A stretch of 48,442 nucleotides of DNA from an uncultured Pseudomonadota bacterium (lineage in GTDB: Bacteria; Pseudomonadota; Alphaproteobacteria; RF32; CAG-239): contig CASFMW010000004.1 in the NCBI GenBank assembly GCA_949295935.1, forward strand, positions 1-48,442, written 5' to 3'. The position numbers were made by a program, and so were the translations under genes. Below the pieces are notes generated by a model that saw nothing but the letters and a program-made list of their open reading frames with translations, was not told where the DNA came from and ran no database searches. How positions within the stretch are numbered: position 1 is the first letter of the stretch; the number at the start of each line of letters is the position of its first letter. Positions 11,699-39,437 of this stretch are shown in pieces.

Positions 11699-13057
11699 TT
11701 ATGAAAATATTTTTTCAACTTTTTTTATGGCTTTTGAGGAGCAATAAACAATTAGTCTATCGCCTTCTAAAATTCGCTCATATATCTCCGGAAAGATAAT
11801 TTCGTCGTTTCTGATAATGGCGCAGACTTTACTGTTTTCTGGTAAATCAAGCTCAACTATTTTTTTATCTGTTATCATCGAGGTTTCATTTATATTTATT
11901 TCCCACACCTCTCCGTAGCCTTGACCTAAGGAATAAGCCTTGCTGATTTTGGCTTTGCGCAATTCTTTTAATATCTCGGATATGGTGACAGATGCGCTGT
12001 CAACAATGATGCTGTCATTCAGATTGCTTACTAATGTATTATAAGAATTTGAATTTACTAATGATATGGTCGTATGAGCTCCGTTTTTCTTGGCAATTAA
12101 AGAGGCTAGCAAATTGTCCTTATCTCGCAAAGTTGTTGAAATTGTGACATCGGTCTCTTCGACATCTGCTTCTTCAAGCATTATATCACTAAGCAATTCT
12201 CCGCAGACGACAGATGTGTGTTCCAACACTCTGGCCAGATAGGCTGCTCGGCGTCTGTCTTCTTCAATTATTTTACAAGATATGATATTATCATCTTCCT
12301 CTAACTTTTGGGCCAGATATAATGATATTTGGTTTCCACCGAAAATCACCACTTTTTCGTTGCTTGGATGATCTGTTCCAAAACTGTGCAGCGCCTCTTC
12401 AATATCTTCTTCCGCGACTAAAAAGAAAAGCTCATCTCCGGCTTCTAAGCAAAACTCTCCTGTTGGAATAAAGTTTTTGCCATTTCTGACAACGCTTACC
12501 GGTGCTAATTTTATCTCTGGTGCGGCAAGGCCTATATGTTCTATGCTGGTTTTTATCAGAGGGCAACTTTCATTGCATTTGATGGAAAGCATATAAATCT
12601 TTTTATCGCCTAAGGGCATGACTGTTGATGCTCCCGGTACTTTTATTATTCCATATATTTCCTCGGCTATTGCCATATCAGGAAAAATTATTAAATCTAT
12701 ATTGATATGATTAGGATTATATAAATCACACCAAATTGGATTTTGATAAGCTTCCGCATCTATTCTGGCAATTTTTTTTCTGATATGAAACAAATAGTCA
12801 GCAACCTGACAAGCAATCATATTAACTTCGTCCGAATTTGTCAGTGCTAATATCATATCTGCACCCTCTGCTCCGGCTTTTTCTAATATTTCAGGATGAG
12901 CTGCATTGCCTAAAATCGGTAAGACATCCCATTCTTTTGCAACCTCATCCAACTTTTGCTGATCTGTATCAATAACGCTTATATCATTATTTCCGTATGA
13001 AAGATAGCTGACTATGTTTTTGCCTATTCTTCCGGCGCCGCAGACAATTATTTTCAT
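11699..13057 (-). CDS. trkA: Trk K+ uptake regulatory subunit TrkA
   Basis: [12 protein letters not shown] Rossmann motif, [11 protein letters not shown], two RCK units, 452 aa. Confidence 0.95.
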
Positions 13058-14025
13058 CTTTCTTCTTCTCCAAAACTGTCAAAATATTTATCTATCGCAG
13101 CCATGGCCTGCTGATAGTCATTTATTTTGGTATAGGTTTCGCGAAATCTTTTGGCATCGCGCAAGTTTTTACAGTACCAACAAACAAACTTTCGAGAAAT
13201 GGCCAAGCCCATTTCTTGTCCGTAATAGCTGCTTAATTCTTCAATATGTTTCAGCATAAAGGCTTTTATTTCCGTAACAGGAATTTTTCTTGGTTCTGTT
13301 CCGGTTCTTAAATAATCATCCGTTTGACTTATTAGCCAAGGGTTGCCCAATCCGGCACGGCCAATCATAACGCCGTCAACTCCGGTCTCTTTTATCATTC
13401 TTGCCGCATCATAAGGGGTGTTTATATCTCCGTTACCAATAACCGGTATTTTAACGGCTTCTTTTACCTCTCTGATAATATTCCAATCCGCCTCACCGGA
13501 ATAAAAAGCACTGCGCGTACGCCCGTGTACGGTTATATATGAAGCACCGCTAGCTTCACACATTTTAGCAAAATCAACGGCATTTACGCTTGAGGCATCC
13601 CAGCCTTTGCGAAACTTAACACTCACTTTTAGCGGTGTGGCGTCTACGACTGATTTGATGATTTTCTCTGCTAGTTTTACGTCTTTCATTAAAGCTGAGC
13701 CAGACTGATTATTCACAATCTTCTTGACTGGGCAGCCCATATTAATATCCAAAGAATGAGCCCCTAATTCTTCTGCTAATTTTGCAGCCTCTGAAAAAAG
13801 AAACGGATCATTTCCTACCAGCTGAACCACAACAGGATAAGCCTCGTCCCTCACATCAGCTATGCGATAGGTTTTAGGATTTTTTCTTTGAATGGCATTA
13901 ATCGCGACCATCTCTGAGACCATAACGCCTTTTCCGAGTGACGACACCAGCTTTCTTAATGGCTTATCGGTTATTCCGGCCATTGGTGCCATAAAAACAT
14001 TGCTATCAAAATCTAATATTTGCAT
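13054..14025 (-). CDS. dusB: tRNA-dihydrouridine synthase DusB (NifR3 family)
   Basis: MAPMAGITD, DINMGCP, TVHGRTR, GNGDI, DGVMIGR. Confidence 0.95.
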   Translation of the reverse strand: MQILDFDSNVFMAPMAGITDKPLRKLVSSLGKGVMVSEMVAINAIQRKNPKTYRIADVRDEAYPVVVQLVGNDPFLFSEAAKLAEELGAHSLDINMGCPVKKIVNNQSGSALMKDVKLAEKIIKSVVDATPLKVSVKFRKGWDASSVNAVDFAKMCEASGASYITVHGRTRSAFYSGEADWNIIREVKEAVKIPVIGNGDINTPYDAARMIKETGVDGVMIGRAGLGNPWLISQTDDYLRTGTEPRKIPVTEIKAFMLKHIEELSSYYGQEMGLAISRKFVCWYCKNLRDAKRFRETYTKINDYQQAMAAIDKYFDSFGEEER

Positions 14026-35034: not shown

Positions 35035-35859
35035 TTATTTGTTCTTTAACCACTCAATAAGCTCGTTATAATTCTCTAGGTCATACAAATCGTTATGCCC
35101 ACCTTCTTCGTAAATAATTATATCTTTGGGTTCCGGTGCTTCGGCATATAATCTTTTGGCCAAGGTTATCGGCACAACCGTGTCTTTTTCTCCGCCCATA
35201 ATCAAAATCGGGCTTTTTATCTCTTTTATTGCGGCGACATTGTCATATTTATCTTTAATAATTGTCTCCAGTGGCAGCGGAACAAAGACAACCTCTTTTA
35301 CCACATTCAAAAGACTGTCAAAAGGAACTTCCAGTACGACTGCGGCAAATATTCCGTCTTTTTGCAGTTTTTCTGCTGTATTAACCGCCATATGTGAGCC
35401 AAGCGACATACCGTAAATGATGATTTGATTATTTTTCCAGCCTTGTTGATGCAGATATTCAACCGCAGCTATAGCGTCTTGCTCCAATCCGGCTTGGGTT
35501 ATTTTTCCTTTTACACCGCCAAAGCCTCTATATTCTCCGGCAAATATGCTGTATCCGGCATCGAGCAAAGGCACAAGCTTTTTGTAAAATTTTCCGACAT
35601 TATAAGAATTTCCATGCATAAAGGCGATAACCTTTTTGCTGCCTTTTTGCGGAACATACCAACCACTCAACTCTGTTCCGTCGGCTGAGCGAAATTTGAC
35701 TTCCTTAATGTTATATCCATATTTTTCAATCGCTATTGCGCTGTCTGAGGCTTGTTTATCCGGATTATAAAAAAAATACTGCGGATAGTAATATACCGTT
35801 GCGCAAAAAGCGATGTATAATCCAATTACAATCCCAATAAACACAACCATTTTTTTCAT
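35035..35859 (-). CDS. Alpha/beta hydrolase (ABHD13/Bem46-like)
   Basis: N-terminal TM, HGN, EYRGFG, nucleophile GMSLG, D-TVVP, GGHND. Confidence 0.9.
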   Translation of the reverse strand: MKKMVVFIGIVIGLYIAFCATVYYYPQYFFYNPDKQASDSAIAIEKYGYNIKEVKFRSADGTELSGWYVPQKGSKKVIAFMHGNSYNVGKFYKKLVPLLDAGYSIFAGEYRGFGGVKGKITQAGLEQDAIAAVEYLHQQGWKNNQIIIYGMSLGSHMAVNTAEKLQKDGIFAAVVLEVPFDSLLNVVKEVVFVPLPLETIIKDKYDNVAAIKEIKSPILIMGGEKDTVVPITLAKRLYAEAPEPKDIIIYEEGGHNDLYDLENYNELIEWLKNK

Positions 35860-35861
35860 AC

Positions 35862-36960
35862 CTAGCCTACCTTTGCTGCCAAAGCTGCGGATAAAAACAT
35901 ATCAATATCGCCATCAAGCACAGCTTTGCAATCAGATGTTTCAACCTCTGTTCGTAAGTCTTTTACCATTTTATAAGGCTGAAGTACATAAGAGCGGATT
36001 TGATATCCCCAACCGATATCGCCTTGAGCGTCTCTCATGTCTTGTTCCTTTTGCTCGCGCTTTTTTAATTCCATTTCATACAAGCGTGATTTTAGCATTT
36101 TCCATGCGCTCTCGCGGTTTTGGAACTGTGAGCGCTGGGTTTGGCATTGGACAACAATTCCGGTCGGAATATGGGTTATTCGTACCGCCGAATCGGTTTT
36201 ATTAATATGTTGTCCGCCGGCACCGGAAGCTCGATAGGTATCAACACGGCAATCTGCCTCGTTAATATTTATCTCAATATCATCATCAACAACCGGATAA
36301 ACCCCGATTGAGGCAAAGCTTGTGTGTCTTCTACCGGCGCTGTCAAACGGCGAAATACGCACCAGACGGTGAACGCCGCTTTCTGACTTGAGCCAGCCGT
36401 AAGCATTATGTCCGCTTATCTTTATGGTGGCAGACTTCAAACCGGCGACCTCGCCTTCCGTTTCTTCAATATATTCAACTTTATAGGCGTGTTGTTCGGC
36501 CCAACGTGTATACATTCTTAAGAGCATTTCGGCCCAGTCTTGTGCCTCGGTTCCGCCACTGCCGGCATGAACCTCTAAATATGTATCATTGGCGTCAACT
36601 TCTCCGCTCAAAAGGGCTTCAAGCTCTTGATGTTTGGCATTTTGTTTTAAACTTTCTAACTGCGCCATTACATCGGCTTGAAGAGCCTCATCGCCATCTT
36701 CTTCTGCCAAGACTGCCATCTCGCTCATCTCGTCAAGGCTATGGCATAGATGTTCGTAATTTTGAAGTTTTTCTTCCAAAGCTGTTTTTTCGCTCATCAG
36801 CTTTTTGGCACGTGCGGCATCTTCCCAAAGCTTTGTATCTTCGGATAAAGCGGTGAGCTCATCTAATCTTATTTTTGAGTTTTCGTAGTCAAACCGACCT
36901 CCGTAATAATTCGGTCGAGTGTTTTATTTCATCAATAAGTTCTTGTGTTTCGGCTTTCAT
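35862..36960 (-). CDS. prfB: Peptide chain release factor 2, expressed through a +1 programmed frameshift (365 aa)
   Basis: ATG 36960 MKAETQELIDEIKHSTELLRRSV-TGA; the +1 frame continues DYENSKIRLDEL...LWEDAARA into ORF 35862..36797; SPF and GGQ motifs present. Confidence 0.96.
36888..36902 (-). other. prfB frameshift cassette GGAGG-TCG-GTT-TGA-C
   Basis: Internal SD at 36902-36898, 3-nt spacer, GTT at 36894-36892, TGA at 36891-36889, C at 36888. Confidence 0.9.
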
Positions 36961-36980
36961 CTGTTTATTTTTCCTTATTA

Positions 36981-39437
36981 TTAATATTGTGTTCCAAGCT
37001 GAAAATCATCATTGCTTTGTTCATTATAAACCGCATTGCTTGATTGGTTTCCGCCTTCGGCATTATCATCACCGATAACGCGCTGGCGATTGTTGAAATC
37101 AAAATCAGGCTTCAGAGCCTCGGTTATGACCGATTTGTCTTGCGGGACGGCCGGCTTTCCGGTTTTGTAATTGATTCTGACTAGTCTTATTCCATTCGGA
37201 ATACGGAACGGAACATCAGGTTTGCCTTTTAAGGCTTGTTCCATAAAGTCATAGAATATCGGAAGAGCAGCGGTTGAGCCGGTTTCGCGGCGGCCTAATG
37301 TTCGCGGTTCATCAAACCCGACATAAGTTCCGACAACCAGATCCGGCGAAAAGCCCATGAACCAAGCGTCGTTGCTATCATTTGATGTTCCGGTTTTGCC
37401 TGCCAGATGTTTTTTTAACCAACGCAATCTGGCTGCTGTTCCTCTTGTGGCAACACCTTCAAGCATGCTCACCATTTGATAGGCCGACAGCGGGTCGATG
37501 ACTTGTTCTCTGGCATCTGTAAGCTGCGGAACATCTTGATTTTCCCACTTTTGGGCTTTGCAATCGGTGCAAACACGGGTATCATGCTTATAAATTGTTT
37601 TGCCGTTACGGTCTTGAATTTGCTCAATAAAATATGGTTCAATTTTTTTGCCGCCGTTGACCATCATGGCATAAGCCGTTGACAAGTCAATCAGTCTTGT
37701 ATCTCCTGCCCCCAAAGACATAGAAAGCAATTCAGGCAAGTGATCATTCACGCCAAGCTTTTTGGCGTATTCACAAACTTCTTTCATGCCCAAATCCTGA
37801 GCTAATCTTACGGTCATTAGATTGCGAGACTTTTCCAAGCCCTGACGCATGGTGGTTAAACCGTCAAACTTTTTGGAATAATTAACAGGTTTCCATTTCG
37901 GCAAGCCAGCACCTTGATCCAACACAAACGGCGCATCCAAAATCAAATCGGTTGGAGAATAACCGTTTTCCAATGCAGCTAAGTAAACAATCGGCTTAAA
38001 TGAAGAACCGGTTTGACGTCTTGCTTGGGTGGCACGGTTAAACTGAGACTTATCAAAATCATAACCACCGACAATGGCCAAAACCTTACCGGTATGTGGG
38101 TCTAGCGCTATTAATCCTCCCTCAACATCGGGAACTTGACGCAGTTCATAGCTATCCTCGCTTACCTTCTTGTCTTTTATGACTTTATCTGTGGCTTTTT
38201 CAACCAAGATGACATCGCCTTGCTTTAAAACCGTTTTAACCGATTTGGGTGCATCGCTTATTCCTTGATTTTTAAGATTTTTTCTAGCCCATCCAATCAA
38301 CGCTAACGGAACTTCTCCTCTTCCGCCGTCGCGAATTTTTATCTCGGCTCTGTCTGCATAAACCTCTGTTACCAAAGCGATTTGCCAATTTTCCTTAGCC
38401 CCTTTAGGTTTTTGAATTTTCTTAAAATCTTCGGCATAATCGCTGTTGATGTCAAGCTCTGCTATCGGGCCTCTGTAGCCATGGCGAATATCATAATTTT
38501 CGATTTCTTTACGAAAAGACTCTGTAGCGATTTTTTGCAGTTTTGGATCCAAAGTTGTTCGAACAATCAAGCCGCCTTCATACAAAGCGTCTTCGCCAAA
38601 CATCTCTTTAACCTCGCGGCGGACTTCTTCACTGAAATAATCAGCGTCTTGCACAAATTCTGCACCACGGTCTACGGTTTTGAGCGGTTTACCTTGCGCG
38701 ATTATCATTTCGTCTTCGGTAATATAGCCATCTTCATGCATGCGGCCCAAAACCCAATTTCGACGAGCTACGGCAGCGTCATATTTGGTCTTTGGATTAT
38801 AATTATTCGGGCCTTTGGGCAAAGCTGCAAGATAAGCTATTTCTTCCAGCTCCAAATCATTTAATGATTTTCCGAAATAATTAAGAGCAGCAGCGGCCAC
38901 ACCATAAGAGCGGTTGCCTAAATAAATTTCGTTCAAATACAACTCTAAAATATGTTGTTTGCTAAATGTTTGCTCCATTCTGGTTGCCAAAACCGCTTCT
39001 TTTAACTTTCTGGTTATTGACAACTCTGAGCTCAGCAAAAAGTTTTTTGCAACCTGTTGAGTTATGGTTGAAGCGCCTGAAGGTCTTCTGCCCGACCCCA
39101 GATTTTTTAAGTTACTGATAACAGCGCGTGCTATACCAAAAAAATCTATACCCGCATGGTTATAAAAGTTTTTATCCTCTGCCGCAATAAAAGCTTGTTT
39201 TACTTTTTCGGGAATCATACTCTCCGGCACAAATAATCTTTTTTGCGCAGCATATTCCATCAGCAGTTGTCCGTCACCTGCATACAGACGTGTGGTTACC
39301 GGTGGCTCATATTTTTCGAGCTGATGAAAATCAGGCAAATCCTGTGTTATTTTCCAAAACACGGTAATAGCGACTATCACTCCGATAACCGCAAAAAAGA
39401 ACATTGTACTGATTAATGATGACAGAGTTTTAAACAT
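36981..39437 (-). CDS. mrcA: Penicillin-binding protein 1A
   Basis: TG motifs EDKNFYNH, GASTITQQVAKN, RKLKE; TP motifs SSFK, SRN, KTG; mrcA-prfB synteny. Confidence 0.96.
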   Translation of the reverse strand: MFKTLSSLISTMFFFAVIGVIVAITVFWKITQDLPDFHQLEKYEPPVTTRLYAGDGQLLMEYAAQKRLFVPESMIPEKVKQAFIAAEDKNFYNHAGIDFFGIARAVISNLKNLGSGRRPSGASTITQQVAKNFLLSSELSITRKLKEAVLATRMEQTFSKQHILELYLNEIYLGNRSYGVAAAALNYFGKSLNDLELEEIAYLAALPKGPNNYNPKTKYDAAVARRNWVLGRMHEDGYITEDEMIIAQGKPLKTVDRGAEFVQDADYFSEEVRREVKEMFGEDALYEGGLIVRTTLDPKLQKIATESFRKEIENYDIRHGYRGPIAELDINSDYAEDFKKIQKPKGAKENWQIALVTEVYADRAEIKIRDGGRGEVPLALIGWARKNLKNQGISDAPKSVKTVLKQGDVILVEKATDKVIKDKKVSEDSYELRQVPDVEGGLIALDPHTGKVLAIVGGYDFDKSQFNRATQARRQTGSSFKPIVYLAALENGYSPTDLILDAPFVLDQGAGLPKWKPVNYSKKFDGLTTMRQGLEKSRNLMTVRLAQDLGMKEVCEYAKKLGVNDHLPELLSMSLGAGDTRLIDLSTAYAMMVNGGKKIEPYFIEQIQDRNGKTIYKHDTRVCTDCKAQKWENQDVPQLTDAREQVIDPLSAYQMVSMLEGVATRGTAARLRWLKKHLAGKTGTSNDSNDAWFMGFSPDLVVGTYVGFDEPRTLGRRETGSTAALPIFYDFMEQALKGKPDVPFRIPNGIRLVRINYKTGKPAVPQDKSVITEALKPDFDFNNRQRVIGDDNAEGGNQSSNAVYNEQSNDDFQLGTQY

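Follow-up and report, generated by a model that had tools for sequence, protein, structure and literature searches.

The release factor 2 (RF2) gene prfB of an uncultured alphaproteobacterium of the CAG-239 lineage (assembly GCA_949295935.1) is found on the minus strand of contig CASFMW010000004.1, in a window, that is, the whole stretch of DNA analysed, of 48,442 nucleotides. Its autoregulatory frameshift signal is placed on a valine codon, GUU_UGA_C, where the leucine codon of CUU_UGA_C is customary. The GUU site is a newly seen variation on the known RF2 frameshift cassette, and comparison of sequences indicates that it is probably a working autoregulatory programmed +1 frameshift, with slippage of tRNA-Val off GUU and onto UUU. 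The evidence consists of a gene anatomy that demands the shift, the fixation of the codon in a clade, selection on its nucleotides, the ordinary tRNAs that read it and the recurrence of the variant in other families.

The unusual reading had been pointed out in an earlier note, made from the letters of this DNA, and it is exact: positions 36888-36902 spell GGAGG-TCG-GTT-TGA-C within the minus-strand reading CGG AGG TCG GTT TGA C, and the RF2 frame resumes in +1 (Table 1). As in canonical cassettes, a short upstream open reading frame (ORF0), which in such cassettes has about 20-30 codons and a stop readable by RF2, rarely UAA, ends in UGA, the body of the protein lies in the +1 frame, a Shine-Dalgarno (SD) element inside the gene lies 3 nt from the shift codon and C follows the stop. 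The slippery CUU_U, from which tRNA-Leu(GAG) re-pairs on UUU through a G:U pair, is missing and replaced by GTT, with UU_U retained. The ribosome has to shift by +1 at GTT-T if RF2 is to be made in full length, since the +1 frame is closed by a TAA 11 codons 5' of GAC and its first ATG, GTG or TTG is Met32 of the +1 part. The predicted product of the shift comprises 365 amino acids, with the junction ...LLRRSV-DYENSK. RF2 scores 509.2 bits on the NCBIfam model TIGR00020 prfB (cut-off 370), and it contains SPF and GGQ, which we take to be the motifs that define RF2.

Table 1. Parts of the prfB frameshift cassette in the window
Feature	Positions	Strand	Basis
prfB ORF0: ATG at 36960-36958, 23 sense codons MKAETQELIDEIKHSTELLRRSV ending in GTT (Val), then TGA	36889..36960	minus	sequence and ORF0 peptides of relatives
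Upstream hairpin position (-29 to -11 from the shift codon); disrupted here, 4/6 pairs and internal mismatches	36905..36923	minus	
Internal Shine-Dalgarno-like GGAGG (context CGGAGGU), 3 nt 5' of the shift codon	36898..36902	minus	invariant in 10/10 GTT-clade genomes
Spacer (E-site) codon TCG; TCT in the CTT sister clade	36895..36897	minus	sequence comparison
Shift (P-site) codon GTT (Val) replacing CTT (Leu); GUU_U with the next T	36892..36894	minus	
ORF0 stop TGA, RF2-specific	36889..36891	minus	
C after the ORF0 stop (weak UGA-C context)	36888	minus	
RF2 body, read in +1 from GAC (Asp, 36890) to TAG, 342 amino acids, with SPF and GGQ	35862..36890	minus	

The earlier note had presumed the site to be functional because RF2 is normally essential and TGA is still a stop, and the latter point holds. 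The focal assembly (G000), a metagenome-assembled draft of 1.54 Mb in 78 contigs and 100% complete, contains one prfB and one prfA, the latter being the sole other release-factor match, and no second prfB. The gene dusB (13054-14025, minus strand) ends in TGA at its full profile length, 138 of the 1169 ORFs of at least 150 amino acids in the genome use the same stop, and ARAGORN finds no tRNA with anticodon UCA in it.

RF2 is present in 40 of 41 related genomes, and the cassette was taken from 30 RF2 loci. Ten of these loci, all from the genus of the window and with an RF2 82-100% identical to the focal one, read CGGAGG-TCG-GTT-TGA-C. CTT occurs in the remaining five of the 15 genus genomes and in all 15 loci from other genera, families and orders, the majority of these 20 CTT loci having (G)AGGAGG-TCT-CTT-TGA-C. 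When RF2 is placed in a tree of 30 rows, a branch supported at 99/93 divides the GTT rows from the others; they are nested in the CTT-bearing genus, and GTT arose, as far as RF2 sequences place it, once within that genus. Within about 30 nt the focal clade and its sister are separated by at least four fixed changes (the Leu codons of an upstream stem, AGG to CGG, TCT to TCG and CTT to GTT). A block of 21 nt, CGGAGGTCGGTTTGACTACGA, is identical in all ten GTT-clade genomes while only 23 of the 219 amino-acid-invariant RF2 codons of the clade are invariant in nucleotides, and because of this difference selection is seen, on comparative grounds, to act on the nucleotide sequence of the GTT cassette. 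Metagenome contigs from three independent DNA studies (X5 record 8; X6 record 18; X8 records 21 and 26), which according to the run records come from bird and chicken gut metagenomes, span the site, and no difference at 36889-36906 is among those listed for them, amid many strain differences elsewhere in the gene. Hence the view of the earlier note that the site is natural is borne out, and three computational checks that it called for, on read error, on fixation of GTT in the clade and on a second prfB, all turned out in its favour: an identical cassette with a fixed non-canonical shift codon, canonical in its other parts, is shared by 10 of the 15 genus genomes, which form one clade.

The variant recurs in other alphaproteobacterial families. 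A scan of the whole collection (185,579 species) with a pattern that demanded A or G as the first base of the shift codon returned 11 loci, all with GTT and all from uncultured Alphaproteobacteria; nine belong to the focal clade, and the other two (L032 and L034) read AGGGGG-TAT-GTT-TGA-C upstream of an RF2 55-57% identical to the focal one. With the first base left free, 24 of 30 known cassettes were recovered. Both scan patterns require NTT-TGA, one of them with GACT..GA and Arg-Leu..Glu downstream and the other with YTNNGGRGG upstream. Among the relatives of the L032/L034 lineage, locus L074 (family f10) encodes the ORF0 peptide MKYEIIEISNKIKVFLENLRGFV followed by a stop, reads AGGGGG-TTT-GTT-TGA-A and resumes RF2 in +1. 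When a looser pattern was run over 401 genomes drawn evenly from the class, about 169 matches appeared, most of them due to chance; 74 of the 150 listed were evaluated (70 fetched and four matched by coordinates to known cassettes), and 19 more lay outside the list. Five of the 70 fetched matches are true prfB cassettes (L106 and L107 in f10, L108 in f187, L109 and L110 in f132), and the other 65, with no RF2 downstream, were discarded as chance look-alikes. In sum, GTT is found in at least nine of the 401 class genomes, in families f1, f10, f95, f132 and f187, and, with the focal clade included, in 18 species genomes from five families, the focal one and four others. All sampled members of f10 (3/3), f95 (2/2) and f132 (2/2) carry it, so the variant outlasts family-level divergence. 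On an RF2 tree of 61 rows the label has to change five times, and at least two of these changes are required by branches with good support. A shift codon ATT (Ile) was verified neither in the 11 loci of the whole collection nor among the class matches checked.

The SD at 3-nt spacing, UU_U and UGA are common to all GTT cassettes. The base after the stop is C in four of the GTT lineages and A in f10, because there a run of A begins at that position: in L074, L106 and L107 it extends over 7-9 bases directly after the ORF0 stop (GTT TGA AAAAAAAA...), next to the shift site, and is long enough for slippage of the polymerase or the ribosome. Among 57 frameshift-type cassettes that were compiled, the shift codon differs at position 1, which is C, G or U, with UU_U constant; the compilation also required NTT-TGA, and variation at positions 2-3 is consequently invisible in it. 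Taken with the published CUU_U and UUU_U, this pattern fits re-pairing at positions 2 and 3.

The tRNAs that decode the site are ordinary. The focal genome encodes, according to ARAGORN, tRNA-Val(GAC), tRNA-Val(UAC) and tRNA-Leu(GAG) with ordinary anticodon loops, of the standard 7 nt in the valine tRNAs; both valine tRNAs are also present in G242, G339 and G455. The tRNA-Val(GAC) of G000, which has GTT, is identical to that of G001 and G008, which have CTT, and most genomes of the two clades share an identical tRNA-Val(UAC). In tRNA-Leu(GAG) the differences between these clades are confined to the D-loop and the variable arm, and the anticodon arm is the same. Co-evolution of a tRNA with the codon change is ruled out by the identity of tRNA-Val and the unchanged anticodon arm of tRNA-Leu(GAG). 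The pairing arithmetic of the earlier note was correct, and the anticodons concerned exist in the genome: on UUU, tRNA-Leu(GAG) forms a G:U pair at codon position 1 and tRNA-Val, with anticodon GAC or UAC, a C:U mismatch. With either valine anticodon A35:U and the wobble pair are kept and the mismatch affects position 1 alone, so that pairing is not abolished as it is at the yeast sites Ty3 and OAZ1. ARAGORN also proposed a special tRNA-Phe(AAA) outside the window (G000:C1:31923-32005), with the complement of GUUU in its loop, TTAAACA; it was rejected as a false positive owing to its 36% GC, the lack of a CCA end, its overlap with a terminator-like hairpin and the absence of any Rfam tRNA match at E <=1. 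As to the E-site codon, only tRNA-Ser(UGA) and tRNA-Ser(GCU) were found in G000, and if no others exist one tRNA must read UCU and UCG, the E-site codons of both clades. Neither tRNA-Ile(GAU) nor tRNA-Ala(UGC) was found in G000, probably because the rRNA operon is unassembled.

In the mechanism that we favour, the ribosome would translate the 23 codons of ORF0 and pause while GUU, in the P site, holds peptidyl-tRNA-Val and the A site is occupied by UGA-C, a poor context for termination, and the SD sequence GGAGG, 3 nt upstream, would pair with the tail of the 16S rRNA. When RF2 is scarce, tRNA-Val would move by +1 onto UUU, keeping A35:U and the wobble pair and tolerating the C36:U mismatch at position 1, and Asp-tRNA would then read GAC to yield full-length RF2. 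When RF2 is plentiful, termination would take place at UGA. We infer that shifting does occur, by a slippage that restores two of the three pairs and that the kept SD and the weak UGA-C context would aid. The maintenance of UU_U, SD spacing and UGA in five lineages while position 1 changes would fit slippage better than a shift without slipping, an argument that for UU_U draws on CUU_U and UUU_U as published, because our own compilation required NTT-TGA. By analogy with data from Escherichia coli and Pseudomonas fluorescens, it is reasonable to suppose that the intrinsic efficiency of GUU would be below that of CUU, and that the feedback loop would buffer the difference, leading to another level of RF2, the re-tuned set point that the earlier note supposed.

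The same analogies, together with other observations, weigh against a working site in the focal clade. Among 32 P-site variants in E. coli, none reportedly comes near CUU_U in efficiency (Curran 1993, via PMC5009743), the data span a 1000-fold range with up to 1000-fold less shifting where +1 pairing is poor (Liao et al. 2008, PMC2377451), and in P. fluorescens the change of CUU to CUA sharply lowers both RF2 and growth (PMC13245932). In the one RNA run (X18), no contig covers the prfB frameshift site. The suggestion of the earlier note that a strong SD might compensate for the poor codon finds no support, since the duplex predicted for CGGAGGU in the GTT clade is weaker (-10.7 kcal/mol) than that for AGGAGGU in the CTT sister clade (-13.3 kcal/mol), both energies resting on the canonical anti-SD motif because the assembly lacks the 16S 3' end. 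Over all lineages the ranges of duplex energy overlap. The focal SD, predicted to be weaker than that of the sister clade, would therefore offset no loss of shiftiness.

Moreover, an upstream hairpin typical of most relatives is lost. It abuts the SD with a stem of 6 bp and a 7-nt loop, pairing -29 to -24 with -16 to -11, which correspond to the Lys/Gln/Ser and Leu-Leu codons of ORF0 (columns 8-13 with 21-26 of alignment A1). In 54 distinct sequences 83.3% of the cells are paired, compared with 70.0% after shuffling, and the covariation score is 0.419 against 0.207, none of 500 shuffles reaching the observed value in either case; all six pairs change on both sides, and slid controls give 19-52% paired, figures to be read knowing that the structure was derived from the same sequences in which it was tested and that the stem is coding sequence. 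All six pairs can form in 22 of 38 CTT sequences and, among the GTT lineages, in f132 (2/2 genomes) and in two of the three f10 genomes, and five of the six in f95. The hairpin is disrupted in all ten focal-clade genomes and in f187. The upstream segment has a mean fold energy of -0.85 kcal/mol in the GTT clade (n=10), -4.9 in the CTT sister clade (n=5) and -6.36 in the other CTT sequences (n=33). No new compensating RNA structure was detected in the GTT clade (alifold z -2.0 to -0.4), in which the only stem across the shift site, of 4 bp, is predicted in CTT relatives as well. The changes in the stem, of AGG to CGG and of CTT to GTT are none of them expected to raise shifting. A drop in TGA usage accompanying the codon switch is ruled out, as TGA makes up 12-14% of stops in the CTT and 11-13% in the GTT genomes of the genus. 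For the focal clade, loss of RF3 relaxing quality control after a P-site mismatch is ruled out too, prfC scoring over the cut-off in all 15 genus genomes (10/10 GTT, 5/5 CTT); in G033, from f10, it does not. Nothing was found to offset the lost shiftiness, as tRNAs, RF3 and TGA usage are all unchanged.

A different account of the same letters dispenses with re-pairing: tRNA-Val would stay on GUU or lift off it, and, with UGA decoded slowly, Asp-tRNA would be taken up on the out-of-frame GAC, as proposed for yeast Ty3 (GCG_AGU_U) and OAZ1 (GCG_UGA_C). A study of 2025 in yeast backs a separate route without re-pairing, GCG_UGA_C included (PMC12661321). The C:U mismatch would leave tRNA-Val with one Watson-Crick pair and a wobble, which for tRNA-Val(UAC) is U:U, and this is the sole valine tRNA found in G033 and the only one found besides tRNA-Val(CAC) in G010, both of which have GTT. 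However, the SD is kept at exactly 3 nt in all five GTT lineages, and in yeast an upstream stimulator that pulls the mRNA helps only those sites where the P-site tRNA re-pairs and is useless at the others (PMC12661321); by analogy, the retention of the SD in GTT cassettes argues for slippage. Nor is it obvious why a shift without slipping should need UU_U, which is nevertheless kept, as the published CUU_U and UUU_U sites indicate, our 57 cassettes having been pre-filtered on NTT-TGA. We consider this account unlikely, although it deserves a place beside slippage of tRNA-Val.

Still less probable, in our judgement, is that C to G represents a neutral or slightly harmful weakening of the site, fixed by drift in lineages with small genomes and low TGA usage, buffered by feedback and perhaps heading for the loss of autoregulation. 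Three elements of the focal clade, the shift codon, the shortened SD and the lost hairpin, have changed in the weakening direction. All GTT genomes have a small size (1.3-1.8 Mb) and a low GC content (29-40% in those measured), and TGA forms 11-25% of their stops, compared with the 31% that frameshift-bearing species are reported to have; in minimal medium, growth suffers less from a weak site (PMC13245932). These traits lose weight when it is considered that small genomes are common in the class sample anyway (20 of its first 48 rows are <=1.8 Mb), and that the sister clade retains CTT with the same range of genome size and the same TGA usage. In addition, decay is hard to reconcile with a cassette that is nucleotide-invariant over ten species whose synonymous sites are nearly saturated, or with the persistence of GTT through family-level divergence in f10, f95 and f132, which implies that selection holds it. 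An artefact or a dead gene, whether by sequencing or assembly error, as a pseudogene, or with RF2 made from an internal start, by transcriptional slippage or from a second gene, is highly improbable. Although the focal genome is a metagenome-assembled draft in 78 contigs, the same letters recur in the genomes of ten species and in contigs of three independent studies, RF2 is intact and conserved, neither a second prfB nor an in-frame start before Met32 exists, and the run of T at the shift site is just 3 bases long.

Several observations concern the surroundings of prfB or its other forms. The stop of a PBP1A-family gene (36981-39437, minus strand) precedes the start of prfB by 20 nt (36961-36980), and because the gap is so short the two genes are probably co-transcribed. 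Directly downstream of prfB lies an ORF of 274 amino acids (35035-35859, minus strand) with no NCBIfam match at E <=1e-20. A genome of 0.5 Mb (G061, locus L075) has a TTT-TGA-C site with a weak SD, GAAGAGG, whose predicted duplex reaches -7.0 kcal/mol, and an upstream hairpin that forms 6/6 pairs with a wholly different sequence. In L058, L070, L071 and L073 prfB is in frame and has no stop (e.g. ...CGG GGT CAC CTT GAT TGG), these being independent losses of the frameshift among Alphaproteobacteria. The complete GTT genome of 1.48 Mb (G455) shows 48 ORFs of at least 150 amino acids in 140 kb (samples L248-L254), compared with 110-153 per 140-200 kb in others, which suggests that coding density is low or that many genes are broken.

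Among bacterial recoding signals the RF2 site is the textbook one; its CUU_U has been called almost universal, with UUU_U as the sole natural alternative named in the literature covered here. A survey of 12,753 RefSeq genomes found CTTTGA 'present in nearly every' motif, the exceptions having 'included' 21 genomes with TTTTTGA, and TAA is found in 1.4% (Prince et al. 2025, PMC12421855). CUU_U is likewise described as highly conserved, with UUU_U in a small minority (Atkins et al. 2016, PMC5009743). The accessible parts of these and other surveys and reviews, among them the prfB survey of Naeem et al. (2024, PMC10798248), contain no mention of a GUU shift site; the primary papers, Curran 1993 and Baranov 2002, are outside this coverage. 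Literature searches for the GUU motif likewise brought up no title on frameshifting among the papers listed. GTTTGA is absent from the supplements of PMC12421855 and PMC13245932, which is uninformative as the control CTTTGA gives zero in the former too. The GUU variant may stand unremarked in published data sets, and prfB genes of the GTT type may be called broken wherever a tool or a curator looks for CTTTGA. As a mismatched GUU variant is fixed, selected and recurrent, the first-position G:U re-pairing would not be obligatory in nature, and the GTT and CTT sister clades bear on the question of whether +1 shifting needs re-pairing in the P site. It is conceivable, but on balance doubtful, that GUU_UGA_C works with no re-pairing at the first position, either by a two-pair slip or by capture in the A site without slipping, possibly through some property of the alphaproteobacterial tRNA-Val or ribosome. 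If this were true, the focal genus would be a natural allelic series separating two models of bacterial +1 frameshifting, because its sister clades differ in CUU or GUU, SD length and hairpin while their tRNAs are identical.

Comparison with known systems places the GUU site close to the E. coli-type cassette, with which it shares the ORF0 of 23 codons, the SD at 3 nt, UU_U, UGA-C, the body in +1 and the single gene. It differs in the P-site codon, GUU (Val), with C:U in place of G:U at position 1, and in the focal clade also in an SD one pair shorter and in the loss of the upstream hairpin. The UUU_UGA variant of prfB, of which L075 is one case, is another natural variant, whose shift codon has changed at its first base while SD, spacing and UGA remain; however, tRNA-Phe re-pairs perfectly on UUU, which tRNA-Val cannot do. 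That variant is published from Aquificota and Gammaproteobacteria, whereas GUU was found here in Alphaproteobacteria only, within the limits of the scan patterns. Upstream hairpins that refold are reported stimulators of +1 shifting (PMC6321510), and a cyanobacterial prfB RNA structure 5' of CUU UGA (PMC12873609) resembles the alphaproteobacterial hairpin in its 7-nt loop, the latter being a covarying stem of 6 bp. The two belong to different phyla, and the stem of the alphaproteobacterial one is interrupted both in the focal GTT clade and in f187. Yeast OAZ1 (GCG_UGA_C) and Ty3 (GCG_AGU_U) likewise shift by +1 at a shifty stop or slow codon where the tRNA in the P site re-pairs incompletely (PMC12661321). 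Nevertheless, these eukaryotic sites have zero potential for re-pairing and gain nothing from a pulling element, while the GUU site pairs at two of three positions and retains its SD.

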